In this document: positions 2,736 through 44,570 of the stretch, piece after piece | Position numbering within the stretch: the first letter of the stretch is position 1 | Layout of the letters: the number at the start of each line of letters is the position of its first letter | Assembly (NCBI GenBank): GCA_963816975.1 | Contig: CAWFMD010000006.1 | Coordinates: 1,374,465-1,438,464, forward strand | DNA from: an uncultured Solirubrobacterales bacterium | GTDB lineage: Bacteria > Actinomycetota > Thermoleophilia > Solirubrobacterales > JBBDJG01 | Length of the DNA: 64,000 nt | Reading direction: 5' to 3' | The notes under the pieces: generated by a model | What the model was told of the DNA's origin: nothing | What the model saw: the letters and a program-made list of their open reading frames with translations, nothing else | Database searches by the model: none | Position numbers and translations under genes: made by a program

Positions 2736-4940
2736 TCAGGAACGCTTGCGGCGGCGCCGCGCTCGGCGCAGGCGACGCGCGACACGCGCCGCCTCGCGCC
2801 GGTTCGCAGCCGGTGCGATCCGCACCGCGAGGCCCACCCGCCGGAACCTGCGCTGGTGCGCCAGCTGCACGGCGAGCGTGGGCCCGGGCCGGGGCGCGGA
2901 GGACTGCGCCTTCGGCCTCAGGATGTGCGCCGTGGCGCGCGGGCGCGCGCCGGTGGGCACGACCACGTACCCGGTCTCTTCGCCGGCGAGGTAGAAGTAC
3001 GCGACGTCGCGCAGGGATACCTGGCGCCGTTTCCGCTGCGGCTCGGCCAGCGTGACCCGGCGGCCGCCGCGCATCACCGCCTCCACGCGCGCGGTCTTGC
3101 CCCACGAGGGAAACATCACGTCAACCGTGTACCGCGCCCGGATGCGGCGCATCACGGCCCAGCGCGTCTCCACATGGCTCGGCGTGAACTTGTGCGTGGT
3201 GTCGATCACGACCTCGCGCGATTCCCGGCGGCCTTTCGCGACGAGGCTCTGGAAGGGCCCGGCGTATGGCCGGGCCGGATACGCCGGTGCAGCCGCCACC
3301 CGCCCCCGCGGTGAGGACAGCAGCGTGATCGGCGGGATCGGCGGCGCCACGGACCGCGGCCGCTGGGACGTGGCGATCTCCTGCTCACCACTGCGCACCA
3401 GCACGCCGAAGCTCGCCCACGGCCGGCCGCCCACGTTGGACACCACCCGCTGGTCGCCGTCATAGAGCCGGCACAGCTCCGTGCCGCCGTAGGGGAAGGC
3501 TCGCTGGTTGACCGGCACCACGGCGGTCGAGTAGCGCGGCGTGGTGATCGACAGGCGCCCGATGTCGGCATCGAAGGAGTACAGCGCAGGCGGCTCCTCG
3601 CCGCCCATCTCGCCCAGACCCAGCGCGATCGCGCGCGCCGCGTTCGCCTGCATGCGGGCGGCGAACAGCTCGCGGATGCTCGGGCCGAGCGGGGCGACGT
3701 TCACGTCGTAGAGGTTGGAGGGAGCGATCCCCTTCGCGTCGGGCGCCTCGCGCGAGAGCCGCTCGTACAGGCCGAGGCCGCGATCGAACATGTACTTCGC
3801 CCATGACCCGATCTCGGACCGGGCGTGAAAGCGCGGCGCCACGGCGATCGCCAGCAGTCCCTGCTGCGCGAGCGCCCAGGTGCGGCCGGCGTGCCAGCGC
3901 TTGAATCCGTAGCCGGTGTCCCAGTTCAGGTAGCCGCCATGGGTCCAGTAGGCGCACACGATGTGCTCGACCCAGGCCCGTAGCAGGCGGTAGTGATCGG
4001 GATGCAGCAGCGGCATGCCCGCGCGCACGGCCTGCTCGTGGTAGAGGATGAAGTGGCAGGTCTCGCTCGCATATTCGGCGCTGTCCACGTTGAACGGATG
4101 AGTCGGGGCCCGGTGGGGCAGATAGTGGAACCTGTAACCCGGCCCGAGGTTGGGCGAACCGCCCGGCGTGAGCGCGCGCGGGATGCCGTCGCAGAAGCGC
4201 GTCACCTGGGCGCGGTAGTCGTTGACGAGCAGCTCCGTGTCGCCCGTGATGCTCGCCGCATGGGCGTACAGCTCGCAGTTCCAGTTGACCTGGTTGAGGC
4301 GCACGTTCGGGAAGCGGAAGAACGGCCCGCGGGCGGCGCGGCTGACGCGGTCCGCGATCATGTCCACCGTCTCCTGCGGGAGTCGCAGCACGTCGCGTGC
4401 TCGCCACGCGTAGACGAGGGCCTCCGCAACCTTCGGATCGATCGACTTGTCCATCGCCGAGTCGCGGGTCCCGAGGCTCTCGACCCAGCCGGGGTTGTGG
4501 AACTGCGAGTCCCCGTCCGGCGACGCATCGCGCTCGCTCCACGGGGGCGACTCGCAGAGCCGCCGCGCGAGCGCGGCGGCGCGGCCGTCGTTGCGCGTCG
4601 GACCGACGTGGCCCGCGAGCGCGGCCACGGCGTGGGTCGTGAGCAACAGGGCGTTGTGGTAGATGCGGCCGACGGTGCTGTTGCCCGAGCCGTAATGCGA
4701 CCTGTCGTCCAGCCACAGGCCGTCGAAGTACGGTGCCAGCCAGTCCGCGAAGCGCCAGTAGTCGGCTGCCTTCAGCGGGGGCCGCGGGAGGCCGGGCGGA
4801 ACGAGGGCGCGATGCTCGGCTGCGTGGAACCCGAACGCGGGAGCCGGGACTGCGCCCAGGCCCCCGAGCGCCGCCGCACCGGCGCCCAATTGCGCGGAGC
4901 GCAGCATGAACTTCCTGCGTGTCAGCGATGGATCTGGCAT
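2736..4940 (-). CDS. Tat-signal secreted protein of unknown function (734 aa)
   Basis: N-terminus MPDPSLTRRKFMLRSAQLGAGAAALGGLGAVPAPAFG has a twin-arginine motif plus hydrophobic core. Coding-like composition throughout, with a very basic C-terminal tail (RRLRRARRRRKRS). Family not recognised with confidence. Confidence 0.75.
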   Translation of the reverse strand: MPDPSLTRRKFMLRSAQLGAGAAALGGLGAVPAPAFGFHAAEHRALVPPGLPRPPLKAADYWRFADWLAPYFDGLWLDDRSHYGSGNSTVGRIYHNALLLTTHAVAALAGHVGPTRNDGRAAALARRLCESPPWSERDASPDGDSQFHNPGWVESLGTRDSAMDKSIDPKVAEALVYAWRARDVLRLPQETVDMIADRVSRAARGPFFRFPNVRLNQVNWNCELYAHAASITGDTELLVNDYRAQVTRFCDGIPRALTPGGSPNLGPGYRFHYLPHRAPTHPFNVDSAEYASETCHFILYHEQAVRAGMPLLHPDHYRLLRAWVEHIVCAYWTHGGYLNWDTGYGFKRWHAGRTWALAQQGLLAIAVAPRFHARSEIGSWAKYMFDRGLGLYERLSREAPDAKGIAPSNLYDVNVAPLGPSIRELFAARMQANAARAIALGLGEMGGEEPPALYSFDADIGRLSITTPRYSTAVVPVNQRAFPYGGTELCRLYDGDQRVVSNVGGRPWASFGVLVRSGEQEIATSQRPRSVAPPIPPITLLSSPRGRVAAAPAYPARPYAGPFQSLVAKGRRESREVVIDTTHKFTPSHVETRWAVMRRIRARYTVDVMFPSWGKTARVEAVMRGGRRVTLAEPQRKRRQVSLRDVAYFYLAGEETGYVVVPTGARPRATAHILRPKAQSSAPRPGPTLAVQLAHQRRFRRVGLAVRIAPAANRREAARVARRLRRARRRRKRS

Positions 4941-5098
4941 CGAAGGCTGTGCAGCGGGCCGCGTGCTCAGGCTTGAACACGCGTGGGCCGGCGGCGGAGC
5001 GGTTTCCGGCCGGGTCTGCCCCGACAGGTTGTCAGGCCCGACGGGCGGCCGCGCCGCCGCGCAATAGCGTCGGGCGCGGCCCTTATGGTGACAAGGTC

Positions 5099-6529
5099 AT
5101 GGCCAAGCCTGTCGCCAGCTTCGCATGCACCGCCTGCGGCCAGGCCAGCCTGCGGTGGATGGGCCGCTGCCCGGGGTGCGGTGAGTGGAACACCCTGGTC
5201 GAAGAAAAGGCCGCCGATCGGCAGGCCGATCGGCGGGTTCGCGCTCGGGACCCGCGCGCATCGGGACGCCGGCGCGCGGCCGAGCCGCGCAAGCCGGTCG
5301 TCCTCGCCGACGTCGAGAGCGGCGCGGCCGACCGCCTGCGCACGGGCAGCGACGAGCTCGATCGTGTGCTCGGCGGCGGCCTCGTACCAGGCTCGGTCGT
5401 GCTGATCGGGGGCTCGCCCGGCATCGGCAAGAGCACCCTGATGAGCGCCGCCCTGGCGAACATCCAGGCCGCCGGCGCACGCTCGCTCTACGTCAGCGGC
5501 GAGGAGTCCGCAGCCCAGGTGAAGCTGCGCGCCGAGCGGCTCGGTCCCCATGCACTGGGCGTCCCGGTGCTGGCCGAGACCTCGCTCGAGGTGGTGCTCG
5601 CGTCGCTCGAGCAGGAGCGCCCGCAAGCTTGCGTGATCGACTCCGTGCAGACGCTCTGGTCGGCCGAGCTGACCGGCGCTCCGGGCAGCGTGGGACAGGT
5701 GCAGGAGGTCGCCGCGGCGCTCGAGCGCTTCGCCCGCGCGCACGGCTGCGCCATGATCCTGGTGGGCCACGTGACCAAGGAGGGCACCCTCGCCGGCCCG
5801 CGCGTGCTGGAGCACGCCGTCGATTGCGTCCTGCAGTTCGAGGGCGAGCGGGAGCGGAGCTTCCGGACGCTGCGCGCGCTGAAGAACCGCTTCGGGTCGA
5901 CCAACGAGATCGGGGTCTTCGAGATGCGCGCGGGGGGCCTCGACGAGGTCGCCGATCCCTCCGAGCGCTTCCTGCGCGATGCGGAGCCGGTGCCCGGTTC
6001 CTGCGTGCTCTGCGCGATGGAGGGCACGCGTCCGCTGCTGGTCGAGGTCCAGGCCCTGGTCGCACCCACGGACGTCGCGCCCCCGCGGCGGGTCGCGAAC
6101 GGCATCGACCGCAACCGGCTCAGCATGATCCTGGCTGTGCTGGCGCGCCACGGTGGGCCGTCGCTGGGAGCCGCGGACGTCTTCGTGAACGTGGCCGGTG
6201 GCGTCCGCATCGAGGAGCCCGGGGCCGACCTCGCCGTGGCGCTCGCGATCACGTCCGCCGCACGCAATGAGCCGCTCTCGGGCGGCGGGTCGCAGTCCGG
6301 GTGCTTCGGCGAGATCGGGCTGACCGGCGAGCTGCGCTACGTGGCCCATGCCGACCGGCGGCTGGAGGAGGCGGCGCGCTTCGGCCTCGAGCGGATCTTG
6401 CTCCCCGCGCGCTGCGGGGACGACGAGCTGCCGCCCGCCCGGAGGGCCCTGGCGGTGCCTGCGCCGACCCTCGCGCAGGCGCTTGCAGCGGCGCTCGGGA
6501 GCGGCGCGGAAGATCGCCGCGCGGCCTGA
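5099..6529 (+). CDS. radA: DNA repair protein RadA/Sms
   Basis: C4 zinc ribbon (CTACG..CPGCGEW), RecA-like Walker A GGSPGIGKST, LKNRFGSTNE motif, Lon-like C-terminal domain. ATG 5099 (MAKPVASFAC) preferred over track start 4919. Confidence 0.95.
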   Translation: MAKPVASFACTACGQASLRWMGRCPGCGEWNTLVEEKAADRQADRRVRARDPRASGRRRAAEPRKPVVLADVESGAADRLRTGSDELDRVLGGGLVPGSVVLIGGSPGIGKSTLMSAALANIQAAGARSLYVSGEESAAQVKLRAERLGPHALGVPVLAETSLEVVLASLEQERPQACVIDSVQTLWSAELTGAPGSVGQVQEVAAALERFARAHGCAMILVGHVTKEGTLAGPRVLEHAVDCVLQFEGERERSFRTLRALKNRFGSTNEIGVFEMRAGGLDEVADPSERFLRDAEPVPGSCVLCAMEGTRPLLVEVQALVAPTDVAPPRRVANGIDRNRLSMILAVLARHGGPSLGAADVFVNVAGGVRIEEPGADLAVALAITSAARNEPLSGGGSQSGCFGEIGLTGELRYVAHADRRLEEAARFGLERILLPARCGDDELPPARRALAVPAPTLAQALAAALGSGAEDRRAA

Positions 6530-6681
6530 GCCGAACCTGCTTCCCGGCCGGCCGGCGACCACGTGGCTTTAGTGCTGAATGTGACATGCTGCGGAGTCGC
6601 GTTCCGCATGGCGCCACGCTTTTCGGGCGGATTTCCAGCCAGACCGCGCTAACAGCGAAGTTTTCCTATCATTCGACGTCC

Positions 6682-7791
6682 ATGCGAGTAGGGGAAGAGT
6701 TAATCGAGGAGCTTCATTCTCGACAAGAACCCCGACTCCTCAGAGCATTGGAGATGGTCGCCCCGGGCACGGCGCTGCGGGAGGGCATCGACAACTGCGT
6801 GCTTGCTCGCACCGGGGCGCTGATCGTGATCGGCGACGAGGACGGCATGGTTCCGCTGCTGTCGGGTGGCATCAAGCTCGACATCGAGTACACGCCCGCC
6901 TTCCTCTACCAGCTCGCGAAGATGGACGGGGCCATCACGCTCACCCAGAACGCGACCAAGCTGATGTGGGCGAACGTGCAGCTCACCCCTGACCCGACGA
7001 TCCTCTCGCGCGAAACGGGAACGCGCCACCGCACCGCGGAGCGGGTCTCGAAGCAGACGGACGCGCTGGTGGTCTCGATCTCGGAGCGCCGCGAGGTCGT
7101 CACCCTGTTCGCCGGCGGAGCCAAGTACGTGCTCCAGGAGATCCCGGCCGTCCTCGCGAAGGCCAACCAGGCGCTGGCCACCCTCGACAAGTACCGGGCG
7201 CGCTTCGATCAGGTGTCCATGCGGCTGACCGCCCTCGAGTTCGAGGGCGGGGTCACGCTCCACGATGCGCTCACGGTGTTGCAGCGCTCCGAGATGGTGA
7301 CCCGCATGGCGGTCGAGATCGAACGCTACATCGTCGAGCTGGGGACCGAGGGGCGGCTGATCGAGATGCAGCTCGAGGAGATGCTCACGGGCGTCGCCGC
7401 CGACCGCTCCGCGCTTGTCAAGGACTACATCGTGGACCCGTCGGAAGAGGCGTTCGCGGCGGTCATGGAGTCGCTCCCGCGGCTTCCCAACCAGGACCTG
7501 CTGGACTTCGGCCGCCTGGGTGAGCTGATGGGTTACGACCGCAAGCTGAACACCCTGGACTTTCCCGTCACCCCGCGCGGCTACCGCATCCTGGGCCGCA
7601 TTCCTCGCCTCCCCGAGATGGTCGTGGAGAGCGTTGTGCGGGAGTTCGGAAGCTTCGACGTGATGCTGGCCGCGACAGCCGACGAGCTGGAGGCGGTCGA
7701 GGGCGTCGGTGAGCTGCGCGCGAAGGAGATCAGGGAGGGCCTCCGGCGCCTGCAGGAGATCAATCTTGTCGACCGCTACCTCCAGACATGA
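6682..7791 (+). CDS. disA: DNA integrity scanning protein DisA (diadenylate cyclase)
   Basis: DAC domain motifs (TGALIVIGDEDG, MDGAITL, GTRHRTAERVS), helical linker, C-terminal HhH-like region (VGELRAKEIREGL). ATG 6682 (MRVGEELIEEL). Confidence 0.95.
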   Translation: MRVGEELIEELHSRQEPRLLRALEMVAPGTALREGIDNCVLARTGALIVIGDEDGMVPLLSGGIKLDIEYTPAFLYQLAKMDGAITLTQNATKLMWANVQLTPDPTILSRETGTRHRTAERVSKQTDALVVSISERREVVTLFAGGAKYVLQEIPAVLAKANQALATLDKYRARFDQVSMRLTALEFEGGVTLHDALTVLQRSEMVTRMAVEIERYIVELGTEGRLIEMQLEEMLTGVAADRSALVKDYIVDPSEEAFAAVMESLPRLPNQDLLDFGRLGELMGYDRKLNTLDFPVTPRGYRILGRIPRLPEMVVESVVREFGSFDVMLAATADELEAVEGVGELRAKEIREGLRRLQEINLVDRYLQT

Positions 7792-7792
7792 G

Positions 7793-7818
7793 CCGTCCGC
7801 TCGTAAGCAAACGGACGG
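7793..7818 (+). terminator. Hairpin after disA (CCGTCCG-12 nt-CGGACGG)
   Basis: 7-bp GC-rich inverted repeat starting 2 nt after the disA stop. No U-tract. Confidence 0.35.
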
Positions 7819-7922
7819 CGGGGAAGCGGCACGGGCGAACCGCCAGCTAGAGGGCAACGCAGAAGCAGGGCAAAGCAGAACCGGCAGAACCAAAGGAGGA
7901 CACCATTCCCGAAGCAACACCA

Positions 7923-8471
7923 GTGGAGAACGGCGCGGTAGAGGTGGACGCGATCATCGTCAACTACAAGGTTGGCGACAAGGTCGTGTATCCGCATCAC
8001 GGCGCCGGAAAGGTCCTGAAGAAGGAGAAGCGGGCGATGATCGGCGAGATGCGCGAGTACCTCACGATCAAGATCCTGCACAACGACATGACGGTCATGG
8101 TGCCGAGCGCCAGCGCGGGGCGGGCAGGCCTGCGCCGGGTGATCGGCGAGGCCGAGGTCGAGCGGGTGCTGGGCGTCTTGCGGGACGACATGAGCCAGAT
8201 GCCGAAGAACTGGAATCGGCGCTTCAAGCACAACCGCGACAAGATGAAGACGGGGGACATCTTCGAGCTCGCCGAGGTGGTGCGTAATCTCGCGATTCGT
8301 GATTTCCAGAAAGGCCTCTCCACGGGGGAGAAGCAGATGTTCACGCGAGCCAAGAAGATCCTCGCGTCCGAGCTCATGTACGCGCTCGACATGGAGGAGA
8401 AGGACGCCGAGGACTACCTCGACGACCTGCTCGAGGAGACCAACACGGAGCGCGCAGGGGCCGCGAGCTAG
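7923..8471 (+). CDS. carD: CarD/CdnL family RNA polymerase-binding transcription regulator
   Basis: KVGDKVVYPHHGAGKV..EYLTIKI is the CarD_CdnL_TRCF signature. GTG 7923 is from the track. The start is uncertain (see the finding on an in-frame ATT at 7905 behind AGGAGG). Confidence 0.9.
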   Translation: MENGAVEVDAIIVNYKVGDKVVYPHHGAGKVLKKEKRAMIGEMREYLTIKILHNDMTVMVPSASAGRAGLRRVIGEAEVERVLGVLRDDMSQMPKNWNRRFKHNRDKMKTGDIFELAEVVRNLAIRDFQKGLSTGEKQMFTRAKKILASELMYALDMEEKDAEDYLDDLLEETNTERAGAAS

Positions 8472-10029: not shown

Positions 10030-10496
10030 GGTCCGGGATCGGCTACGACGTGCACCGGTTCGGTGACGGCCGCAGGCTCGTGCTGGGAGGGGTCGAGATT
10101 GCGGGGGAACGCGGGCTCGAGGGTCATTCGGACGCGGACGTGGTGACCCATGCCGTGGCGGACGCGTTGCTCGGCGCGGCCGGGCTCGGTGACATCGGCG
10201 AGCACTTCCCGGACGACGATCCGCGCTACCAGGACGCCGACAGCATCGACCTGCTGGCGCAGATCGCGCGAAAGCTCGGCGGCTGGCGGCTCGTGAACGT
10301 GGATGTCAGCGTGATCGCGGAGCAGCCGCGGCTCGCGCCGCTCAAGCGCGCGATGGCCGAGCGGCTGGCGGGCGCCCTGGGCATCGACGCGTCGTGCGTG
10401 AACGTGAAGGCCACGACGAGCGAGGGCATGGGCTTCGTCGGCCGCGGCGAAGGGATCGCCGCGTTGGCTGTGGCACAGATCGAGCGCGACGGGTGA
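10026..10496 (+). CDS. ispF: 2-C-methyl-D-erythritol 2,4-cyclodiphosphate synthase
   Basis: GIGYDVHRF, GHSDADV and DIGEHFPD motifs. ATG 10026 forms an ATGA overlap with the preceding stop. Confidence 0.95.
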   Translation: MRSGIGYDVHRFGDGRRLVLGGVEIAGERGLEGHSDADVVTHAVADALLGAAGLGDIGEHFPDDDPRYQDADSIDLLAQIARKLGGWRLVNVDVSVIAEQPRLAPLKRAMAERLAGALGIDASCVNVKATTSEGMGFVGRGEGIAALAVAQIERDG

Positions 10497-11890
10497 GCGC
10501 GGTACGCATCCACGACTCGCTGCGCGGGGAAGTGCGCGACCTCGAACCGCGGGAGCCGGGCAAGGTCGGCATCTACGCGTGCGGGCCGACCGTGTACGGC
10601 CGCATCCATGTGGGGAACGCGCGTCCCTACATCGTCTTCGCGCTCCTGAAGCGGTTTTTGGAGCACGAGGGATACGACGTGACCCTGGTCGAGAACATCA
10701 CCGACGTGAACGACAAGATCTACGACGCCGCCCGCACGGCGGGTGTGACCTCGGACCGGCTGGCGCGCGAGATGACCGCGGCCTATCGCGCCGATACCGA
10801 CCGGCTCGAGCTCGGCCGCCCCGATCGCGAGCCGCTGGCCAGCCAGACGATCGATCCGATCATCCATCTGATCGAGGCCCTGATCGAACGCGGCCACGCC
10901 TATGCGGCGCAGGGCGACGTCTACTTCAGCGTGCGCAGCTTCGACGGGTACGGCAAGCTCTCCAACCGTCGCCTCGAGGATCTGCTCCCGGCCGATCAGG
11001 GCGAGCCGGACGCCGAGCAGGTGCGCAAGCGCGACCCTCTGGACTTCGCCCTGTGGAAGGCGCAGAAGCCGGACGAGGACACCGCCTGGGACTCGCCCTG
11101 GGGCCGGGGCCGGCCCGGCTGGCACATCGAGTGCTCCGCGATGGCCGAGGAGATCCTCGGGCTCGAGTTCGACATCCACGGCGGCGGCTCCGACCTGATG
11201 TTTCCACACCACGAGAACGAGATCGCGCAGACCGAGGCGGGCCGGGGGGCACCGCTGGCCCGCTTGTGGATGCACAACGGGATGATCCGCTTCGGGGAGG
11301 AGAAGATGGCGAAGTCGGTCGGCAACGTCATGACGCTGGCGGACGCGCTCGACAGCTACGGCCGGGATGCGCTGATCGTCTACATGCTCGGCGGGCACTA
11401 CCGGCAGCCGCTGGCCTTCTCGGCGGAGCGGATGGAGGAAGCGCGGCAGGCGACACGGCGGCTCGCGGACTTCGCGCGCCTGGTGCGGCGCAGCGGCGAC
11501 CTCGTCGCAGGTGAGCCGGACCACGACGCCGCGGCGCTCGAGCAGGAGTTCTTCGCAGCCCTGCGGGATGACTTCAACACGCCGGAGGCGCTGGCGGCGC
11601 TGTTCAAGCTCGTCAGCGAGGGCAACCGCCGGATCGATTCCGGCCGCGCGCTGCCCGGCACGTGGTCCGTGCTGGGCGGGATGTTCGAGGTGCTGGGGCT
11701 GGAGGGCATGCTGGAAGAGCGCGAGGGCATCGACGAGGACGCCCTGCGCCTGGTGCAGGAGCGCGAGGACGCGCGCCTGGCGCGGGACTACAGCCGCGCC
11801 GACGCGGCCCGCGACGAGCTGCTCAAGCGTGGGTGGGAGGTGCGCGACACGTCGGAGGGCCCCGTGCTGGTGCCCGTCGCCGGAAGTTGA
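10493..11890 (+). CDS. cysS: Cysteine--tRNA ligase
   Basis: Class I aaRS motifs HVGNARPY (HIGH-type) and KMAKSVGN (KMSKS-type), plus CGPTVYG. GTG 10493 forms a GTGA overlap with the ispF stop. Confidence 0.95.
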   Translation: MSAVRIHDSLRGEVRDLEPREPGKVGIYACGPTVYGRIHVGNARPYIVFALLKRFLEHEGYDVTLVENITDVNDKIYDAARTAGVTSDRLAREMTAAYRADTDRLELGRPDREPLASQTIDPIIHLIEALIERGHAYAAQGDVYFSVRSFDGYGKLSNRRLEDLLPADQGEPDAEQVRKRDPLDFALWKAQKPDEDTAWDSPWGRGRPGWHIECSAMAEEILGLEFDIHGGGSDLMFPHHENEIAQTEAGRGAPLARLWMHNGMIRFGEEKMAKSVGNVMTLADALDSYGRDALIVYMLGGHYRQPLAFSAERMEEARQATRRLADFARLVRRSGDLVAGEPDHDAAALEQEFFAALRDDFNTPEALAALFKLVSEGNRRIDSGRALPGTWSVLGGMFEVLGLEGMLEEREGIDEDALRLVQEREDARLARDYSRADAARDELLKRGWEVRDTSEGPVLVPVAGS

Positions 11891-24817: not shown

Positions 24818-26497
24818 ATGCGGGGTATTCACCCTGTCGAGATGGACCTCGAGCGCGCCCACCAGATCGCCCGCGAACGCGGCCCCGTGATGCCCGTCTA
24901 TTGGGTGGTCCGCGCGATCCTCCAGCCGTTCTTCCACCTGTACTTCCGACTCGGACGCATCGGCCGGGAGCACGTCCCCGCGCAGGGCCCCGTGCTGCTC
25001 GCGTCCAACCACCGCAGCTTCGCGGACCCATTCCTGATCGGCTGCTGCCTCGGGCGTCCGCTGCGCTTCGTCGCGAAGCTCGAGTTGTTCGACAAGCGCT
25101 GGAAGGCCCGGCTCCTGCTGGCCCTCGGCGCCTTCCCCATCCGCCGCGGGGAATCCGACGAGGCCGCGATGGAGACGGCCCGGGTGATCCTCGAGCAGGG
25201 CGGTGCGGTCGGCATCTTCCCGGAGGGCACCCGCGTGCGGCCCGGTCCGCTGGGCGAGCCGAAGCGCGGCGTCGGCCGGCTGGCGCTCGAGACCGGCGCT
25301 CCCATCGTGCCCGTCGCGATCGTCGGCACGGAGGACATCCGCAAGGGCTGGCGCATCCGCCCGCGCCGCGTGACCGTCCGCTGCGGCCGCGCCCTGCGCT
25401 TCCCGCGCCCACTCGATCGCGAGCCCCGTCAGGCGGCCGCGCAGGAGATCTCCAACCGCGTGTGGTCGTGCATCTCGTTGCAGTGGGAATGGCTCGGGGG
25501 CCTGCAGCCGATCCGCCAGGCTGTCGTGGTCGGCGCCGGCAGCTGGGGCACTGCGGTGGCCACGCTGCTGGCGCGCTCAGGCACCACGGTGCAGCTCGGC
25601 TGCCGCACCGCGGAGCAGGCTCGCGACCTCGGCCTGAACCGCACGAATGCCGCGTATCTGCCGGGAGTCCAGCTGCCCGACAACGTGCGGGTCGTGATGG
25701 TCGACGATCTCCGCTTCGACGACGTGAGCCTGGTCTGCATGGCGGTTCCCTCCCGCTCGCTCGACGACGCGCTCGGCGCCATCCGGGCGCGCATCCCCGA
25801 CGGCCTCGGCGTGCTGGTGCTCTCGAAGGGCCTGCTTGCGCCGCACGGCACGCTGCCGAGCCAGCTGGTCGCCGCGCGCACCGGCGAACGGCCGACCGCA
25901 TGCCTCGGCGGGCCGGCTCATGCCGGCGAAGCGGTTCGCCGCGGCGCGCACGTGACCGTCGCATCTGCCGACCCGACGTTCGCGGCGCTGATCGCGAGCA
26001 GCCTGCGGCGCGCGGGACTTGCGTGCGACACGAGCCGCGACCTCGTCGGCATCGAGCTCGCAGGTGCCGCGAAGAACGCGGCCGCCCTGGCCGCGGGTGC
26101 GGCGATGGCGGATGGGCCGAACGCGGCCGGGGCGGCCGCGGGACGCGTCTACGAGGAGTGCCACGCGCTCGCCCACAAGCGCGGCGCGGCGGCCGCGAGC
26201 TTCACCGGTACGGCCGGCATCGGCGACCTGGTGGCCACCGTGCTCGCGGCACACAGCCGCAACCGGCGCGCCGGCGAGCTGCTTGCGCAGGGAGTCGAGC
26301 CCGGGGAGATCCCGCAGATCCTGGGCCAGGTTCCGGAGTCCCTGCATGCGGTACCCGTGCTCGCGCGGGCGATGAGCGAGGCGGGCGTCCGATCCACGGC
26401 GACCGAGCAGCTGGCGGCGCTCGCGGAGGGACGCATCGGCCCGGACCAGTGGGTCGAATTGGCGCGCCGCTCGCGCGCAGGGTCACGAGCCGCCTGA
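24818..26497 (+). CDS. plsC/gpsA: Fusion protein: 1-acyl-sn-glycerol-3-phosphate acyltransferase (PlsC) domain + NAD(P)H-dependent glycerol-3-phosphate dehydrogenase (GpsA) domain
   Basis: N-half: LLASNHRSFADPF (HX4D) and GIFPEGTR. C-half: VVVGAGSWGTAVATLLA Rossmann motif, NAAYLPG, GAAKNAAALAAG. One continuous frame with no stop between the halves. The start could be 24818 or 24842. Confidence 0.85.
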   Translation: MRGIHPVEMDLERAHQIARERGPVMPVYWVVRAILQPFFHLYFRLGRIGREHVPAQGPVLLASNHRSFADPFLIGCCLGRPLRFVAKLELFDKRWKARLLLALGAFPIRRGESDEAAMETARVILEQGGAVGIFPEGTRVRPGPLGEPKRGVGRLALETGAPIVPVAIVGTEDIRKGWRIRPRRVTVRCGRALRFPRPLDREPRQAAAQEISNRVWSCISLQWEWLGGLQPIRQAVVVGAGSWGTAVATLLARSGTTVQLGCRTAEQARDLGLNRTNAAYLPGVQLPDNVRVVMVDDLRFDDVSLVCMAVPSRSLDDALGAIRARIPDGLGVLVLSKGLLAPHGTLPSQLVAARTGERPTACLGGPAHAGEAVRRGAHVTVASADPTFAALIASSLRRAGLACDTSRDLVGIELAGAAKNAAALAAGAAMADGPNAAGAAAGRVYEECHALAHKRGAAAASFTGTAGIGDLVATVLAAHSRNRRAGELLAQGVEPGEIPQILGQVPESLHAVPVLARAMSEAGVRSTATEQLAALAEGRIGPDQWVELARRSRAGSRAA

Positions 26498-27687: not shown

Positions 27688-29019
27688 TTGACTGCGCTCC
27701 TCCTAGTCCTGCTGCTACTGCTGATCCTGCTGAACGGATTCTTCGTCGCTGCGGAGTTCGCGCTGGTTCGCGCACGGCGCACGCGCATGGAGGAGGCGGC
27801 GGGCGAGGGCTCGGGCAGCGCAAAGCGCGCGCTCCATCAGATGGACCACCTGAGCGAGTACCTGTCTGCCGCCCAGGTCGGAATCACGTTCACGTCGATC
27901 GGGCTCGGTTTCCTCGGTGAGCCGGCGATCGCGAGCTTGCTCGAGCCGGCGCTCGGTGGCGCCCTGGGCCACGGCGCGTCCGTCGCGATCTCCGTCGCGA
28001 TCGCCTATCTGTTCGTCACGTCTGCACACGTGATCGTCGGTGAGCAGGCGCCGAAGATGACAGCCATCACCCATGCCGAGCGGATCGCGCGCTTGTGCGC
28101 CCGTCCGCTGGAGTGGTTTCGGATCGGTCTCCACCCGGTCATCTGGGTGCTCAACAACGCGTCGAACTTCGTCGTCAAGCGGATCCTGCGAATCGACGTC
28201 GAGAGCGACGGCGAGGCCGCCACCGCCGAGGAGCTGCGGGTGCTGATCGGGCGCGGCGAGCGCTACGGTGAGCTCGACCCGAACGAGGCGGGCATGTTGG
28301 AGGGCGTGTTCCACCTCCACGAGCAGGAGGCGCGCCAGGTGATGACCCCGACGCCGGCGCTGGTAACCGTGAACAGCGAAGACACCGTCGAGACCGGACT
28401 GCGGCGCTGCATCACGTCCGGTCACACACGCCTGGTGGTGATCGAGGACGACAATGCGGATCGCGTGCGCGGAGTCGTGCACTCCAACCGCTTGGCGCAG
28501 ATCTTGATCGGCGAGGGACCGGAGGCGCCGCTCGCGCCGCTCGTGCGCGAGCCGCTGATCATGCCCGAGACGAAGCCGCTCGACGACCTGCTGGCCGACA
28601 TGCAGCGCCAGCGGACGTCGCTGGCCGTGATCGTCGACGAGTTCGGCCGCACGGCCGGGATCGTCACGATCGAGGACATCATCGAGGAGATCGTGGGGGA
28701 GATCGTCGACGAGACCGACCCGATGCTGTCATCGATCCGCCGCCTCGTGAACGGCGACTGGTTCGTGCGGGGTCATGTCTCGCTGGGCGACCTCGAGGAC
28801 GCCGGCATCCGCCTGCCCGTCGACTCCGACGCCTACACCTCGGTGGGCGGATATGTGTTCGGCCAGCTCGGGCGCCTGCCAAAGCGCGGCGATCAGATCA
28901 GCGCCAACGGGTACCTGATTCGCGTCGAGTCGGTGCGGGAGAACCGGGTCGAGGCGGTGCGGATCCACCCGACGGCGCCCGCGGCCCAGGGCCGCAGCGC
29001 GGCCCCGCGGGAGCCCTGA
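27688..29019 (+). CDS. CNNM/CorC/TlyC-family transporter-associated protein (DUF21-CBS pair-CorC_HlyC)
   Basis: LLNGFFVAAEFALVRARRTR (DUF21 start), CBS pair region, C-terminal CorC_HlyC-like domain. AGGAG lies 4-5 nt before TTG 27688. Confidence 0.9.
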   Translation: MTALLLVLLLLLILLNGFFVAAEFALVRARRTRMEEAAGEGSGSAKRALHQMDHLSEYLSAAQVGITFTSIGLGFLGEPAIASLLEPALGGALGHGASVAISVAIAYLFVTSAHVIVGEQAPKMTAITHAERIARLCARPLEWFRIGLHPVIWVLNNASNFVVKRILRIDVESDGEAATAEELRVLIGRGERYGELDPNEAGMLEGVFHLHEQEARQVMTPTPALVTVNSEDTVETGLRRCITSGHTRLVVIEDDNADRVRGVVHSNRLAQILIGEGPEAPLAPLVREPLIMPETKPLDDLLADMQRQRTSLAVIVDEFGRTAGIVTIEDIIEEIVGEIVDETDPMLSSIRRLVNGDWFVRGHVSLGDLEDAGIRLPVDSDAYTSVGGYVFGQLGRLPKRGDQISANGYLIRVESVRENRVEAVRIHPTAPAAQGRSAAPREP

Positions 29020-35531: not shown

Positions 35532-37349
35532 CTAGCGACGCGGTGCCGTGGCGAGGGCCTTTGCCGGGCGCCGGCGAAGATCCCGCAGGGAGGTTCGCTC
35601 GCGCTCCATCCGCGGCGCCAGCGCGAGGAATCTCTCCACGAGCCGGGGGTCGAACGCCGTGCCGCTGCGCGCACGGATCTCGGCGAGCGCGGCGTCGAGG
35701 CTCCATGCGGGCTTGTAGGCGCGCTCCGACATGAGCGCGTCGAATACGTCGCAGATCGAGCAGATCCTTCCCGCCATCGGGATCTCCTCTCCGCGCAGTC
35801 CCGCCGGGTAGCCGCTGCCGTCCCACCGCTCGTGGTGCGTGCGGGCGATCACCTCGGCAACCTGGATCAGACGCGATCCTGAGCCCGCGAGAATCTCGCT
35901 GCCGATCTTCGTGTGGCTCCTCATGATCTCGCGCTCCTCGGCCGTGAACTCGCCCGGCTTGCGCAGGATCGCGTCGGGGATCCCGATCTTGCCGAGGTCG
36001 TGCAGGGCGCTCGCGTCCCGGAGGAGCTCGGCGTCGTCGACGCTCCAGCCGGCGTCGACTGCGAGTTGATAACAGAGCCGGCCGATTCGCTCGATGTGCT
36101 CACCGGTTTCGCGGTCGCGCGACTCCGCCGCCTGTCCGAGCCGGTACACGACCTCCATCTGGGTCTCGCGCAGCTCCGTGGTGCGCTTGCGCACCTCTCG
36201 CTCGAGCTCGTCCTTGCGATGCACGACGCGGCGGCGCTCGCTGCTCTCCGCAAGGTATGCGGCGGTGACCGCGGTCACGGTTCCGGTCATCAGTGCCGCG
36301 ATCGGATAGGTGAAGACCACGACCCACCCGGCGTTGAAGAGCTCCTGCGCGACGATCGCGTAGCCGATCGCCACCGAGGGAACGAGCACGACGAGCAGCC
36401 GCGCCCGCATGTAGGCGATTCCGAGCGTGGGTGCGAGCCCAAGTGCCAGGATCATGAGCAGGTCGATCCAGTCCGGCACGCTGCGCAGCGGGACACCGTG
36501 CATGGCGGTCCAGATCGCGTTCGCCTGGATCTCCGGTCCCGACATCGGATTCTCGTCTGACATCGGTGTCGGGTGGATGTCCTGCAGGGTCGACGCCGAC
36601 GCGCCCACCACGACCACCTTGTCGCGTAGCGCCGCGAAGGGGACGTCGCCTTCGACCAGGTCGGCGAAGGAGAAGGTCGGCACCGTTGCCGGGGGGCCGC
36701 GGTAGTCGATCCATGCGCCGCCGTGGTCGAACAGATGCCGCGGCGGCGGGTGTCCCGTCGCCTGGCCGGCGGTGGCCACGCCGAAGGTCTCGAGCCCGGC
36801 CTCCTCGTAGGCGATCTTGCGGACCACGCCCCCGCGGTCGACGGGGACGTTGCTCGCGGCGGCCCGGGCCCGCGCCCGCGCGACGTTGGCGTCGCCACCG
36901 AGCACGTTCGTGCGGCCCCGCTGGTCGACCTCCGTGGTGGCGAGCACCACATTGCCCGCCCGCCTGATCGCACGGTAGAGGGCAAGATCTTCGGCCGGCT
37001 TCGTGGGCTCCGTGAACTGGACGTCGTACGCGATCTGCCTGACGCCGGCCGCACGGAGCCGATCGATCGCGGTGGCGTGCAGCGAGCGTGGGAAGGGCCA
37101 CTGGATCTCCAGCCTGGAGAAGGTCACCTCGTCGATCGCGATCACGACTACGTCGTCGGGGGGATCCGCCTCGCGCAGTGTGAAGCGCATGTCGAGGCTG
37201 TCACCCTCCAGGGGTCCCCAGGCATCCGTCACGTACGCCAGGCAACTGAGGGCGACGGCGATCGTGGCCGCGAGCACCGTACCAACCCGACGGCCGGCCG
37301 CGCGGGTCGCGCGAAGGTCGCGCGCCCGACCCTTCGATCTCCTGCGCAT
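35532..37349 (-). CDS. CHASE2 sensor domain / HD-GYP domain signalling protein (putative c-di-GMP phosphodiesterase)
   Basis: Periplasmic CHASE2 pattern (VVVIAIDEVTF..WPFPRSLHA..YDVQF), three C-proximal TM helices, then HD-GYP (HIERIG, ALHDLGKIGIPD, HHERWDGSGYP). ATG 37349 chosen; GTG 37367 is possible. Confidence 0.85.
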   Translation of the reverse strand: MRRRSKGRARDLRATRAAGRRVGTVLAATIAVALSCLAYVTDAWGPLEGDSLDMRFTLREADPPDDVVVIAIDEVTFSRLEIQWPFPRSLHATAIDRLRAAGVRQIAYDVQFTEPTKPAEDLALYRAIRRAGNVVLATTEVDQRGRTNVLGGDANVARARARAAASNVPVDRGGVVRKIAYEEAGLETFGVATAGQATGHPPPRHLFDHGGAWIDYRGPPATVPTFSFADLVEGDVPFAALRDKVVVVGASASTLQDIHPTPMSDENPMSGPEIQANAIWTAMHGVPLRSVPDWIDLLMILALGLAPTLGIAYMRARLLVVLVPSVAIGYAIVAQELFNAGWVVVFTYPIAALMTGTVTAVTAAYLAESSERRRVVHRKDELEREVRKRTTELRETQMEVVYRLGQAAESRDRETGEHIERIGRLCYQLAVDAGWSVDDAELLRDASALHDLGKIGIPDAILRKPGEFTAEEREIMRSHTKIGSEILAGSGSRLIQVAEVIARTHHERWDGSGYPAGLRGEEIPMAGRICSICDVFDALMSERAYKPAWSLDAALAEIRARSGTAFDPRLVERFLALAPRMERERTSLRDLRRRPAKALATAPRR

Positions 37350-37474
37350 GTGAGTCCGTGAGAGCACGAGCTGACGAGTGCCCTGGGGGCGCCCGACAGT
37401 CGCATCGGCATCGGCTCGGCGGCGCTTGAGAACGATCGGCCCGCCCGCTCGCGCCAGTGCGGCGCGAGCTTCGG

Positions 37475-38549: not shown

Positions 38550-39737
38550 CTACAGTCCCTCGTCGCGCACGCGCACGATCTCGGCCAGCTCGTCGATCCT
38601 GGCCTGCACGCCCAGGCTGATCGCGGACTCGTCTCCCAGGATCCAGGCGTGGTTGTAGACGCCCCGCACCGGGTCGAACCGGTAGCCGGGCTGGATGTCG
38701 AGCAGGTAGTCCTCCAGCGGCCCTGGGAGCTTGTCCTTGTCGTCGACGAGCAGCAACGGCCCATAGGTGCCGCTCCCTCCGAGCGCCGCAGCCGCGGCCG
38801 CGTCGCCCGTGCGGCCGGAGTTGGCGAACACGAGGCCGTGTCCGGGGTCGCGGACTCCCCAGCCGAAGGTCGCGTCGGAGTAGCGTGCGAACGCGATCGC
38901 GTTGGTCACGGGTGTGCTGCCCTGGATCCGCTTGACCGGGCCGAGCCGCCGCAGCGAGCGCTCCACTTCTGACGAGATCACGTGCTCGGGCCCGAGCACG
39001 TAGATGCGCGGCTGCTCGTGGCGGTTGATCGCCTGCCGCGTCGCGCGCGGCAGGGCGTTGCGTTCCGTGAAGAGCACCGAGTCGCCGGACTTGGCCGCCC
39101 ACGAAGCCGCGGGCATCGCGAACTGCGGCTGGTCCACCGAGACGATCACGACGTTGGCGGACGGGCGCTTCGCGACATCGGTGCGAAACGCGTCGATCGT
39201 GGCTGCGAGCCTGACCGGGTCGCCGCCCGCAATGCGGCGCGAGCGCAGCTCTCCCGGTGCCCGAGCGTCCCCGACCTCGATGGCCTGCGCGCCGCCCGCG
39301 TCGGGCGCCCCGGTCGGTTTGAGCGTGTCCAGGGCGGTCGCGGTGGCGCGCGGCAGGTCTCCGCCGTCGGTCAGCAGGATCGGGGCGCGCAGCGGCCGGC
39401 CCATCAGGGCGGCGGCCGCGATCGCCGCGCGCCAGTCGTCCCGGTCGACGAGCGTCACGGCCCGCGGGCGCGTGCCGCGGGTCTGCCCGGGATAGGTCGC
39501 GGCGGCCGTCCCGGCCGCGTCGGCGACCGCGTCCCGACCACCGACCCGCGTCGTGTTCTTGGTCGCGAGCGCGGGGAAGCCGAGCACGGCCTGGTTCGCG
39601 GTGTCCTCCTTGAGCTGGACCTCGACCGGATTGCCGTCGTCGCCGCACGCGCCGATCGCCAGCGCAAGCGCGACCATCACGATCACCGTCCCGGTCAGAT
39701 GCGCGCCTGTGCGGGGCTCCGCCATCGAGCGGCGCAC
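38550..39737 (-). CDS. Lipoprotein with three putative cell-wall-binding (CWB2-like) repeats
   Basis: Lipobox LAIGAC. Three repeats with R[VI].G.D....A pattern plus 'ILLTD..LP', 'VLFTERNALP' and 'LLLVDDKDKLP' segments, typical of cell wall binding repeat 2. Confidence 0.65.
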   Translation of the reverse strand: MRRSMAEPRTGAHLTGTVIVMVALALAIGACGDDGNPVEVQLKEDTANQAVLGFPALATKNTTRVGGRDAVADAAGTAAATYPGQTRGTRPRAVTLVDRDDWRAAIAAAALMGRPLRAPILLTDGGDLPRATATALDTLKPTGAPDAGGAQAIEVGDARAPGELRSRRIAGGDPVRLAATIDAFRTDVAKRPSANVVIVSVDQPQFAMPAASWAAKSGDSVLFTERNALPRATRQAINRHEQPRIYVLGPEHVISSEVERSLRRLGPVKRIQGSTPVTNAIAFARYSDATFGWGVRDPGHGLVFANSGRTGDAAAAAALGGSGTYGPLLLVDDKDKLPGPLEDYLLDIQPGYRFDPVRGVYNHAWILGDESAISLGVQARIDELAEIVRVRDEGL

Positions 39738-42184: not shown

Positions 42185-43000
42185 TCAGATGATCACCGGC
42201 ACGGTGCCGCCGTCGACGCTCCACGCCGCCCCGGCCACATAGGACGCGCGCTCCGAGCACAGGAACACGATCGCGCCCGCGATCTCCCCGGGTTCGGCCA
42301 TGCGGCCGATCGGCCGCCCGGCGCCGGACTTCAGCATCGCCTCCTGCGCGCCCGCCAGGCCCGAGAGGGCGGCCGACTGGTCGGCCAGCCCGCCCGCGCC
42401 GACCCACAATTCGGATTTGGTCGGCCCGGGGCACACCGCGTTGACGAGCACGCCGTCCGGCGCGCAGCGATCCGCCCACAGGCGTGAGAGTGAAAGCTGG
42501 GCGGCCTTGGCCACGGAGTACTCGGGCATGTTGGCGGACGGGCGCTTGCCCGCCGTGCTCGCGACATTCACCACGCGGCCCCAGCGGCGCGCGCGCATCC
42601 CCGGCACGAGCGCGCGCATCGCGCGGTGCGACGCCATCACGTTCAGCTCCCATGCGGCGCTCCAGTCCTCGTCGGGGACGTCGTCGAGGTCGCGCCAGCG
42701 CGCGGTGCCCGCGTTGTTGACGAGCACGTCGGGCTCGCCCAGGTCTGTGCGGGCCGCGCCGAGCATGCGCTCCCCGGCATCGGCGTCGGTCACGTCGCAG
42801 CGCAGGGCCGCGGCGCGGCCGCCCGCAGCGCGGCCGCCCGCAGCGCGGCATGTCTCGAGCGCTTGCGCGAGCGCATCGGGCGAGCGCGCCACGAGCAGCA
42901 CCGCAGCACCCTCCTCACACAGCGCCAGCGAGGTCGCCAGCCCGATGCCGCGGCTCGCGCCGGTCACGACGCACACCTTTCCTCCCAGGCCCAGATCCAC
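42185..43000 (-). CDS. SDR family oxidoreductase
   Basis: VVTGASRGIGLA (TGxxxGxG), NNAG, and YSVAK (YxxxK). Confidence 0.9.
   Translation of the reverse strand: MDLGLGGKVCVVTGASRGIGLATSLALCEEGAAVLLVARSPDALAQALETCRAAGGRAAGGRAAALRCDVTDADAGERMLGAARTDLGEPDVLVNNAGTARWRDLDDVPDEDWSAAWELNVMASHRAMRALVPGMRARRWGRVVNVASTAGKRPSANMPEYSVAKAAQLSLSRLWADRCAPDGVLVNAVCPGPTKSELWVGAGGLADQSAALSGLAGAQEAMLKSGAGRPIGRMAEPGEIAGAIVFLCSERASYVAGAAWSVDGGTVPVII
42813..42849. repeat. In-frame 15-bp tandem duplication (GCGCGGCCGCCCGCA, about 2.5 copies) inside the SDR gene
   Basis: Encodes the AAGGRAAGGRAA stretch of the protein. Confidence 0.6.
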
Positions 43001-43129
43001 GCGCAGCAGTCTAGGACTGGGCGCAATCTCTCGTGCAGCGGCGCGGCGCAGGGCAGGAAAACGCGCCGGCCCGCGTCTTGCTGCTAAGGTTCCCGCGCTT
43101 TTGCAGGCAAATCAGTTCTGGGAGGTACG

Positions 43130-43312
43130 AACCTTCTCGAGCCGCTGAGTTCTCCCCGTGGCGGCCAGGACGGCCAAGCGGGGCGAAGCGGGGGAACCAA
43201 AGGCCAGCAGTGGGCGCCGGTTGGCGCCCTCGGGGCTAATCGCCGCGAGCCTCTTCGACGGTGTAGCGCCAGCTCTTCCGGCGCGAGTCCGACAGCTAAC
43301 CCCGTAAGCGTT
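43130..43312 (+). promoter_or_regulatory. Candidate ydaO/yuaA-type (cyclic-di-AMP) riboswitch in the leader of the M23 peptidase gene
   Basis: The 322-nt non-coding leader contains the blocks I associate with this motif: GCCGCUGAGUUC, GCGGGGGAACCAAA, CGGGGCUAAUCGCC and the 3' signature GAGUCCGACAGCUAACCCCGUAAGCG, which ends 12 nt before the ATG. The 5' boundary is approximate. Confidence 0.65.
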
Positions 43313-43322
43313 GGAAAGAGAC

Positions 43323-44570
43323 ATGGTGGATCCAAGCCCTTCGGGCCCCAGCAGGGGCCTCGCACGAACAACCGATGCTCGTACGCCAAGGCAGGCAGCC
43401 GCGCTCGCGGCTGGGCTGTTGTTGAGCGCCCTCGCGCTCATCGCCCTTGCTCCCGATGCGTCGCGCTCCGCATCGCTCCAGGCGATCCAGGCGAACATCA
43501 CCGAGAAGCAGGACGCGATCGAGAATGCGCAGGCGCAGGAGGGCGTGCTCACCGGCGACATCAGCGCGCTGTCCCGGCGAATCCGCACGCTCACGCGAGA
43601 GATCGGGTCGCTGCGCCGGCGTGAGGCGCGCGTCCAGAACACGCTCGACGCGCGGCGCGCGCAGCTCGCCCGTGTGCAGGCGCGCTACCAGGTCGAGCAC
43701 CGGCGATTCGTGCGCTTGCGCAGGGAGCTGCACCGCTCGCAGATCGTGCTGGCGCAGCGCCTGATCGAGATCTACAAGTCGGACCAGCCGGACATGCTGT
43801 CGGTGATCCTCGAGTCCGACGGCTTCAACGATCTGCTCGTGCGCGCCGACTACATGAGCGCGATCGGCGAGCAGGACTCCGTGATCGTCGACAAGGTGCG
43901 TGCCCTGAAGAAGAAGTCCGCGCAGAAGCGGCTGCTGCTCGTCGTGCTGAAGTCGCAGGCCGAGGTGGCGGTGCGGGTGATCGAGGCAAAGCAGCGCGAG
44001 CTCGAGCAGGCACGCGCGGCGATCCAGGCCAACGAAGCCGATCTCGCATCGGCGCGGCGCTACAAGTTCGGCAAGCTCGGCAACGTGAAGGCGCATCGCC
44101 ATGAGCTGGAGGGTGACCTGCGCGAGTTGCAGGCCGCGTCGGCCCAGGTGACGAACCAGCTGCAGGCCGGGGGCCCCGCGCCCGCGGGCCCGATCCGCCA
44201 GGGCGGAGGGGGGTACATCTGGCCGGTGAACGGCCCGGTCGTGTCGCCCTTCGGGATGCGCTGGGGGCGCCTGCACGCGGGCGTCGACATCGCGGTGCCG
44301 GCCGGCACGCCGATTCGGGCCGCGGCCAGCGGCACGGTCGCGATGGCGGGGTGGATGGGCGGCTACGGGCAGTACACGTGCATCCAGCACGGCGGTGGCG
44401 TCGCCACCTGCTACGCACACCAGTCGTCGATCGGGGTCGGCGCGGGCGCGAGCGTCAAGCAGGGCCAGGTGATCGGGTCGGTCGGTTGCACCGGTCACTG
44501 CTTCGGCGACCACCTGCACTTCGAGGTCCGGATCAACGGGTCCCCGGTGGACCCGATGGGCTACCTCTAG
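43323..44570 (+). CDS. M23 family metallopeptidase with N-terminal signal/anchor and coiled-coil region
   Basis: C-terminal LytM/M23 motifs HAGVDIAVPAGTPI and GHCFGDHLHFEV. Long heptad-like region before them. ATG 43323 sits behind GGAAAGAG. Confidence 0.85.
   Translation: MVDPSPSGPSRGLARTTDARTPRQAAALAAGLLLSALALIALAPDASRSASLQAIQANITEKQDAIENAQAQEGVLTGDISALSRRIRTLTREIGSLRRREARVQNTLDARRAQLARVQARYQVEHRRFVRLRRELHRSQIVLAQRLIEIYKSDQPDMLSVILESDGFNDLLVRADYMSAIGEQDSVIVDKVRALKKKSAQKRLLLVVLKSQAEVAVRVIEAKQRELEQARAAIQANEADLASARRYKFGKLGNVKAHRHELEGDLRELQAASAQVTNQLQAGGPAPAGPIRQGGGGYIWPVNGPVVSPFGMRWGRLHAGVDIAVPAGTPIRAAASGTVAMAGWMGGYGQYTCIQHGGGVATCYAHQSSIGVGAGASVKQGQVIGSVGCTGHCFGDHLHFEVRINGSPVDPMGYL

Follow-up and report, generated by a model that had tools for sequence, protein, structure and literature searches.

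Genes and features of the locus

The DNA analysed in this study (hereafter the window, a stretch of 64,000 nucleotides from contig CAWFMD010000006.1 of an uncultured Solirubrobacterales bacterium) can be placed by its sequence in the Thermoleophilia, Actinomycetota. On its forward strand, directly before the ATG of a gene for an M23 (LytM-type) peptidoglycan endopeptidase, it carries a sense-oriented element of the 5' leader that corresponds to the cyclic di-AMP (c-di-AMP) riboswitch class, and it also encodes DisA, a diadenylate cyclase. A first-pass annotation had put forward a ydaO-type riboswitch candidate at this site, controlling an M23 cell-wall peptidase in the same window as disA, and these identifications were borne out by our analysis.

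The endopeptidase gene (43323..44570, +; 415 amino acids, aa) is recognized by the Pfam models Peptidase_M23 (114 bits), in agreement with the nature predicted for the controlled gene, and CC_PcsB, which describes a PcsB-type coiled coil (27 bits). Its start codon, ATG 43323, is backed by three homologous loci (L002, L005 and L006; L numbers designate loci of the comparison set introduced below). An identical 415-aa protein is present in a public collection (P0001), and the closest relatives, with 81-92% identity, come from Solirubrobacterales metagenome-assembled genomes. Over its full length the protein resembles EnvC of FtsEX-EnvC structures (e.g. 8hd0_E, query 29-414). An alignment of 12 relatives shows no variation at H318, D322 (HxxxD), H366 and H399 and very little at H397; we take these residues to be the M23 metal and catalytic motifs. 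Unlike EnvC, whose LytM domain is degenerate, the protein encoded in the window thus has its catalytic residues intact. At its N-terminus a hydrophobic segment comes after a charged stretch, and on this basis we read the protein as secreted or membrane-anchored. The gene appears to be monocistronic; the next gene, lgt, begins 435 nucleotides (nt) 3' of it.

The disA gene occupies positions 6682..7791 (+; start codon approximate). The DAC (92 bits), DisA-linker (165 bits) and HHH_2 domains present in this open reading frame (ORF) identify the product as DisA, at the position given in the first-pass annotation. Neither ftsEX nor c-di-AMP genes other than disA were recognized in the 64-kb window.

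Identification of the riboswitch

The window was compared on both strands with all 4227 Rfam families, using cmscan. RF00379, the family of the c-di-AMP riboswitch, matched positions 43133..43325 (+) at 62.3 bits, where the family's gathering score is 38 (E = 4.8e-12). The match extends over model positions 1-134 of 134, so that the candidate passes the threshold by 24 bits with full coverage of the model. With R1, a covariance model made for this clade from the leaders of 29 related loci, the same element scores 108.9 bits. The Rfam scan gave no further riboswitch anywhere in the 64-kb window, although the cut-off was relaxed to E <= 1; this added only two sub-threshold matches, plainly spurious, elsewhere. 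The three strings on which the original proposal had been built are all present on the + strand (GCGGGGGAACCAAA at 43188..43201, CGGGGCTAATCGCC at 43231..43244 and GAGTCCGACAGCTAACCCCGTAAGCG at 43285..43310); the last of them is followed by TTGGAAAGAGAC and then by the ATG at 43323. We consider that the element is almost certainly a bona fide c-di-AMP riboswitch aptamer.

Architecture of the aptamer

The structured core of the match, from P1 to P1, spans positions 43143..43310 of the + strand (helices are numbered by us in order of their appearance). The 5' strand of P1 (CGCU, 43143..43146) pairs with AGCG at 43307..43310 according to the Rfam alignment. It is followed by the P2 hairpin (43150..43187), composed of a base UUC/GAA (43150-52 with 43185-87) and an extension CCCCG/CGGGG (43154-58 with 43179-83), and then by GCGGGG (43188..43193), the 5' strand of a long-range helix, which pairs with CCCCGU at 43300..43305 and immediately precedes the conserved GAACC. 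Within a short helix of the Rfam model lies a variable insertion hairpin (GGGCGCC-GGUU-GGCGCCC, 43212..43229), which has a perfect 7-bp stem in the window and is different or absent in most relatives.

The second half of the pseudo-two-fold fold (43233..43290) comprises the pairing of GGG (43233-35) with UCC (43288-90) as well as two helices, P6 (CGCCG/CGGUG, 43241-45 with 43259-63) and P7 (GCGCC/GGCGC, 43266-70 with 43280-84). The P7 loop (43271..43279) contains the anti-Shine-Dalgarno sequence AGCUCUUCC, with the core CUCUU at 43273..43277, and would form the 5' strand of a pseudoknot. The 3' strand, complementary to the loop, would be provided by the Shine-Dalgarno (SD) region GGAAAGAG at 43313..43320.

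The conserved blocks CGCUGAAU, GCGGGGGAACC, GGGGYGAAUC and GAGCCCGNCAGCUAACCYCG are all found in the window with no more than one substitution each, and the same blocks are invariant or nearly so across the 29 leaders. The organization of the nested helices, in which the outer P1 and the long-range helix enclose two hairpin-bearing halves (25 pairs, 6 helices), was upheld in the comparison of relatives described below.

Conservation and covariation in related genomes

The comparison set consisted of 80 loci obtained from an alignment scan with the M23 protein, with one genome per GTDB species; nearly all are labelled Thermoleophilia or unclassified Actinomycetota, and one is labelled Acidobacteriota. 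Of the first 20 loci scanned, 14 have an RF00379 match directly before the M23 gene (53.5-76.6 bits), as do 14 of 15 further loci bearing the CAGCTAAC core (38.9-81.5 bits). According to the R1 model, 29 of these 80 loci have the element, as does the window (74.8-119 bits), and all but one of these 29 relatives' aptamers pass the Rfam gathering score. The element is present in all five relatives with more than 60% protein identity that have upstream sequence. The R1 search gave no convincing element in the other 51 M23 loci (best E = 0.17), namely L008, L010, L012, L014, L017, L019, L020 and 44 others within L024-L080, which indicates that the regulation is specific to some lineages. Some of the element-free loci (e.g. 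L030, L041) share the MKK...FW-type N-terminus of the riboswitch-bearing Thermoleophilaceae genes; this suggests that the element has been repeatedly gained or lost within the class.

The alignment of the 29 leaders shows 96.3% pairing over the 25 nested pairs, 14 of which change on both sides. These values were not reached by any of 500 shuffles. When the 3' partners were shifted by 1-3 columns, pairing fell to 38-46%; this control somewhat favours the unslid register, as the nested pairs derive from the alignment of the window to the Rfam model. Compensatory changes occur at all five pairs of P6 and at two of four pairs of P7, while the three pairs at the base of P2, a helix whose length varies across relatives, all change on both sides. 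One P1 pair alternates between CG (19 of 29 leaders) and UA (10 of 29), the variants encountered among relatives being CGCU/AGCG, CGCC/GGCG and UGCC/GGCA. The pairs of the long-range helix are mostly invariant (97.7% of cells paired), in agreement with the Rfam consensus. The element is thus shared by orthologous leaders and shows compensatory base changes among them, as the first-pass annotation had suggested checking; it is an RF00379-type RNA structure kept by selection.

The pseudoknot and the ribosome-binding site

Only 12 nt separate the end of P1 (43310) from the ATG (43323), and the terminator scan revealed no terminator-like site between the aptamer and the start codon. The core of the P7 loop, CUCUU (43273-77), can pair with AAGAG (43316-20), and the adjacent CC (43278-79) with GG (43313-14) across one bulged A, with a calculated energy of -8.1 kcal/mol. 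The purine tract GGAAAGAG occupies positions -10 to -3 before the ATG, so that the tail ends 2 nt upstream of the start codon, and it must serve as the SD sequence.

A long P7 loop (9-11 nt) is found in 14 of the 30 aptamers, the one from the window included. In every one of these 14, P1 is followed after 9-14 nt by the start codon, relative to which the best loop/tail duplex occupies positions -13 to 0. The sequences involved differ: the pairing is CCUCUUU/AAAGAGG in L002, CUCUUUCG/CGAAAGAG in L016 and CUCUUUCG/CGAGAGAG in L044, and compensatory variants are CUCAC/GUGAG (L036 and L078) and UCCUC/GAGGA (L021 and L023). Loops and tails of different types pair poorly with each other; for example, the L036 loop reaches -9.0 kcal/mol with its own tail and only -3.0 to -3.9 kcal/mol with others. 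The pseudoknot was scored by duplex energies calculated for each sequence, together with a cross-pairing matrix; these replaced the counting of pairs because the MAFFT-aligned tails were 1-2 nt out of register. On this comparative evidence the loop-tail pseudoknot receives moderate support.

The only terminator-like hairpin on the + strand, which has a weak T tract (43396..43413), was considered as a possible expression platform and rejected as a chance occurrence. It lies within the coding region, 86 nt after P1, in the part of the M23 gene that encodes the signal peptide, and most likely reflects no more than the Ala/Leu codons there.

Comparison with characterized c-di-AMP riboswitches

The prototype of RF00379, found at ydaO/kimA (and ktrAB) of B. 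subtilis, has the same conserved blocks, nested helices and pseudoknot between the last loop and the 3' tail as the element in the window. The Bacillus members, which belong to the same aptamer class and act as OFF switches for c-di-AMP, regulate potassium transporters by way of an intrinsic terminator, which is their expression platform. In contrast, the element in the window has no terminator, is followed by an ATG 12 nt after P1, and precedes a gene for a peptidoglycan peptidase.

By analogy, the closest precedent for the mechanism proposed below is the riboswitch of nlpC (cg2402) in C. glutamicum. It lacks a terminator, and in an artificial operon only the first cistron was repressed while the transcript level was unchanged; the authors proposed a CTCC/GGAG pseudoknot between the pyrimidine tract of the aptamer and the ribosome-binding site (PMC9960051). 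Both systems come from actinobacteria with DisA-made c-di-AMP, both target a cell-wall peptidase, and both are devoid of a canonical terminator. They differ in the host (Mycobacteriales versus Thermoleophilia) and in the target, which in C. glutamicum is an NlpC/P60 peptidase heading a seven-gene operon, whereas in the window it is a coiled-coil M23 metallopeptidase whose gene is apparently monocistronic. Moreover, translational repression in C. glutamicum is indicated by experiment, while the pairing in the window is supported by comparative sequence data.

A cell-wall target is typical of the group. Almost all genes preceded by a ydaO element in Actinobacteria are cell-wall related (PMC9960051), and Streptomyces genomes each have six or seven hydrolase genes with the element (PMC10117811). 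The earlier suggestion that this motif stands before cell-wall hydrolase genes in Actinomycetota therefore matches the published pattern (PMC9960051, PMC10117811). The rpfA gene of S. coelicolor and S. venezuelae likewise belongs to a regulon of cell-wall lytic enzymes under DisA-made c-di-AMP; however, it encodes a lytic transglycosylase-like Rpf, and its regulation has been reported as a reduced transcript level or premature termination (PMC10117811).

A structural counterpart is available in the crystallised c-di-AMP riboswitch 4QLM/4QLN, for which an RNA-Puzzles paper quotes the sequence and describes a stable pseudoknot, the strands of which are not named (PMC5393176). The 4QLM loop CUCCUUCG and 3' tail CGAAGGAG are exact 8-bp complements, and on this ground we read the stable pseudoknot of the structure as the loop-tail pairing. 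The 3' half of 4QLM aligns base for base with the window, including GAGYCCGNCAGCUAACCYCG and the positions of the pseudoknot loop and tail; the homologous loop of the window is CAGCUCUUCCG (43270..43280), and the homologous tail UUGGAAAGAGAC stands directly before the ATG. The crystallised construct is a minimised one, with neither a long P2 nor an insertion hairpin, while the RNA of the window has two extra hairpins. The pseudoknot of the latter is shorter than the 8-bp one of 4QLM, is bulged, and doubles as an SD sequence.

Earlier work has already described the riboswitch class, its cell-wall regulon in actinobacteria and the translational mode, so that the finding itself is an ordinary one: the element adds a new member and no new variant of mechanism. 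The understanding of the class is unchanged, and standard Rfam-based annotation would label the element. What is gained is a securely identified c-di-AMP riboswitch, together with its target gene, in the Thermoleophilia, a class of soil actinobacteria with almost no experimental genetics. The actinobacterial pattern, in which c-di-AMP restrains cell-wall hydrolases, would thereby be extended to a coiled-coil M23 endopeptidase. The comparative data also support, at the sequence level, the idea that terminator-less members act through burial of the SD sequence in the pseudoknot of the class itself, which had previously only been proposed for Corynebacterium. A full-text literature search for the ydaO riboswitch in connection with M23, from whose range the primary papers on the class were absent, returned no paper.

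Proposed mechanism and alternative explanations

The lack of a terminator and the use of the SD sequence as the 3' strand of the pseudoknot best support a translational OFF switch acting on the M23 gene, in which the c-di-AMP aptamer functions without a separate expression platform. We assign this explanation a probability of roughly 0.7. DisA, encoded 36 kb away, would make c-di-AMP, two molecules of which, when the nucleotide is abundant, would bind the pseudo-two-fold RNA. Binding would lock P1, the long-range helix and the pseudoknot (CUCUUCC, 43273-79, with GGAAAGAG, 43313-20). As the tail of the pseudoknot is the SD sequence, the ligand-bound fold would hide the ribosome-binding site, and less of the M23 hydrolase would be made. 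That the RNA binds c-di-AMP is expected by analogy with the characterized members of the class, and the OFF direction is likewise suggested by B. subtilis kimA, S. coelicolor rpfA and C. glutamicum nlpC. The riboswitch probably acts at the initiation of translation, and the effect would be exerted there and not on the mRNA level.

Several observations weigh against this explanation. The pseudoknot of the window is modest (five contiguous pairs and two past the bulge, -8.1 kcal/mol), and shuffled purine-rich tails equal its duplex energy in 15% of trials, although mononucleotide shuffles of such tails constitute a weak control (p = 0.008-0.37). The covariation of the pseudoknot amounts to only two independent compensatory events, and the 51 homologous M23 loci devoid of the element point in the same direction. 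An unconstrained fold already pairs 43270-81 with 43311-25 in the absence of the aptamer helices and is lower in energy than the aptamer-constrained fold (-119.5 versus -110.2 kcal/mol). The anti-SD is thus joined to the SD even in the free fold, and energy models therefore cannot show ligand-dependent masking of the SD sequence. The minimum free energy (MFE) of the whole leader is no better than that of shuffles (z = 0.21), and the single-sequence MFE fold does not reproduce the aptamer; single-sequence folding is uninformative for this GC-rich RNA.

The same aptamer might instead exert its control mainly at the transcript level, through Rho-dependent or other non-canonical premature termination or through faster mRNA decay, the loss of translation being secondary. 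Rho could plausibly act on a nascent GC-rich mRNA that is not being translated, and the terminator-like hairpin at 43396..43413 inside the coding region could be cited in favour of this possibility. A further argument comes from the S. coelicolor rpfA member, which lowers transcript abundance without a canonical terminator (PMC10117811; discussed in PMC9960051) and which also counts against translational control in the window. We nevertheless consider control at the transcript level unlikely, as only 12 nt lie between P1 and the ATG, with nothing terminator-like among them, and the SD sequence is itself a strand of the pseudoknot. L001, L004 and L002 have no conserved counterpart of the intragenic hairpin, which neither overlaps nor competes with any strand of the aptamer.

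A translational OFF switch responding to c-di-AMP must also be weighed against the view that the element is an aptamer-like relic or a variant of altered specificity, which does not respond to c-di-AMP, recognizes another dinucleotide, or acts as an ON switch. Sequence does not by itself reveal ligand specificity, and two architectures, distinguished by a long or a short P7 loop, occur among the relatives, which means that the platform is evolving within the class. Against this view, all the highly conserved blocks of the Rfam consensus are intact and the score is well over the threshold. The element is also under purifying selection, with compensatory changes, in genomes that share no more than 46-86% identity in their M23 proteins. 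DisA is present in the window, and the members characterized in the cited literature are all c-di-AMP OFF switches (PMC9960051). This alternative is highly improbable. The folding energy of the leader, no better than that of shuffles, would even fit a chance match in GC-rich intergenic DNA. This last explanation is refuted by the E-value of 4.8e-12 in a search against 4227 families on both strands, by the correct strand and position before the gene, and by the presence of the element at the same place, with covariation, in 29 independent genomes.

The leader upstream of the aptamer

A 322-nt non-coding leader had been attributed to the M23 gene. The region 43001..43322 is indeed non-coding over 322 nt; it represents, however, the whole intergenic space shared with a divergent short-chain dehydrogenase (SDR) gene (42185..43000, -), the 5' neighbour of the leader, and is not necessarily all 5' untranslated region (5'UTR). 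A putative extended -10 promoter element, TGCTAAGGT (pattern TGnTAnnnT), is located at 43082..43090 (+) and is kept as TGCTAAGGT, TGATAATGT or TGATACAGT in the alignment with six relatives of 65-86% protein identity. The conservation of this element suggests that transcription starts near 43097, which would give a 5'UTR of about 225 nt. A scan of 42900..43500 for the sigma-70 consensus detected no promoter-like site.

In the alignment with close relatives an almost invariant block runs from about 43062 to 43140. It contains the -10-like element and most of the conserved leader 5' of the aptamer (43097..43142, +), which carries CTTTTGCAGGCAAATC and a GGGAGGU/ACCUUCU hairpin (43120..43138) that appears in predicted folds. 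Positions 43097-43142 are almost invariant in the window, L001, L004 and L002 (relatives with 81-86% protein identity) and partly kept in L005 and L006. Within this leader, the SD-like GGGAGG (43120-25) pairs with ACCUUCU (43132-38), and GGGAGG/GGAGG is also retained in L005 and L006. The GGGAGG region could be a decoy partner for the anti-SD loop when the ligand is absent, or a protein-binding site. A small palindrome, TTTGC-AG-GCAAA, was also noted at 43101-43112.

Relatives with a short P7 loop

In 15 of the relatives' aptamers the P7 loop is short (3-7 nt) and, by its length, was judged too short for the loop-tail pseudoknot. Nine loci of Solirubrobacteraceae type have a P7 loop of 3-4 nt, and their M23 start codon lies 95-170 nt 3' of the aptamer. 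The gap is filled by a strongly conserved element of about 95 nt (L015:2412-2512, L018:2436-2536, L031:2355-2455, L045:1762-1862, L047:2424-2524, L055:2295-2395, L060:2433-2533, L065:2295-2395 and L072:2475-2575), which is absent from the window. It follows the pattern GAAAAuCCCUGCA-nnn-UGCAGGAUUCnUUGCAUGCUCCAUAAC...GGAGGGCGCCUAGnAUG and carries CCCTGCANNNTGCAGGATTCNTTGCATGCTCCATAAC. The element can be read as an upstream ORF (uORF) of 28-46 aa, with the motif SLQxAxFxACSIT and a TAG stop that abuts the M23 start codon. Its third codon positions are invariant, it includes ATA and GCA codons, which are expected to be rare given a third-position GC content of about 90%, and it contains a CCUGCA-NNN-UGCAGG palindrome; these features together point to a constraint at the level of the nucleic acid. 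The element matches no Rfam family, and RNAalifold gives 13 weak pairs with no covariation. It may represent an undescribed expression platform or operator.

In the loci of Thermoleophilaceae type (L007, L009, L011, L013, L022, L034 and L064) the P7 loop is 3-7 nt long (14 nt in L022), yet P1 and the start codon are separated by no more than 9-24 nt. It is conceivable that the ribosome-binding site pairs with the P6 loop in these cases.

A broader joint reading of these data, which we regard as doubtful and offer tentatively, would be that this Thermoleophilia clade has the most compact translational form of the riboswitch, in which the aptamer's own pseudoknot strand has been recruited as the SD sequence. 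The c-di-AMP made by DisA would then be tied to an EnvC-like, catalytically intact and possibly FtsEX-associated septal M23 hydrolase, while the nine sister loci would have swapped in an undescribed module (short P7 loop, no pseudoknot, and the ~95-nt element or uORF).

Other genes of the window

The disA gene directly follows radA (about 4919..6529), in whose ORF RadA-type domains were found; as the RadA zinc ribbon begins at residue 68 of the longest ORF, the true start of radA probably lies about 60 codons 3' of 4919. The radA-disA pair is succeeded by carD (the three genes spanning 4919-8471), preceded by a clpC-like gene (63-1865), and cysS (10394-11890) comes after. The order radA-disA-carD with clpC-like and cysS genes is the usual actinobacterial arrangement.

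Two further proteins can be mentioned in connection with cyclic dinucleotides. The product of 35532-37367 (-) has a CHASE2 sensor domain fused to an HD_5 (HD-GYP-like) domain, and from its HD-GYP family we presume it to be a candidate membrane-bound cyclic-dinucleotide phosphodiesterase. The adjoining gene (38550-39737, -) encodes a protein with CWB2 cell-wall-binding repeats. A CNNM/CorC-type transporter-like protein with CBS domains is encoded at 27688-29019 (+); CBS domains are c-di-AMP receptors in some proteins of Firmicutes. The remaining genes are ordinary housekeeping ones (clpC-like, carD, cysS, cox1, thiolase, acyl-CoA dehydrogenases, lgt, hom, thrC and others). At 24818-26497 (+) a single ORF joins a PlsC-like acyltransferase domain with an NAD-dependent glycerol-3-phosphate dehydrogenase (GpsA), apparently through the fusion of genes for two successive steps of phospholipid synthesis.

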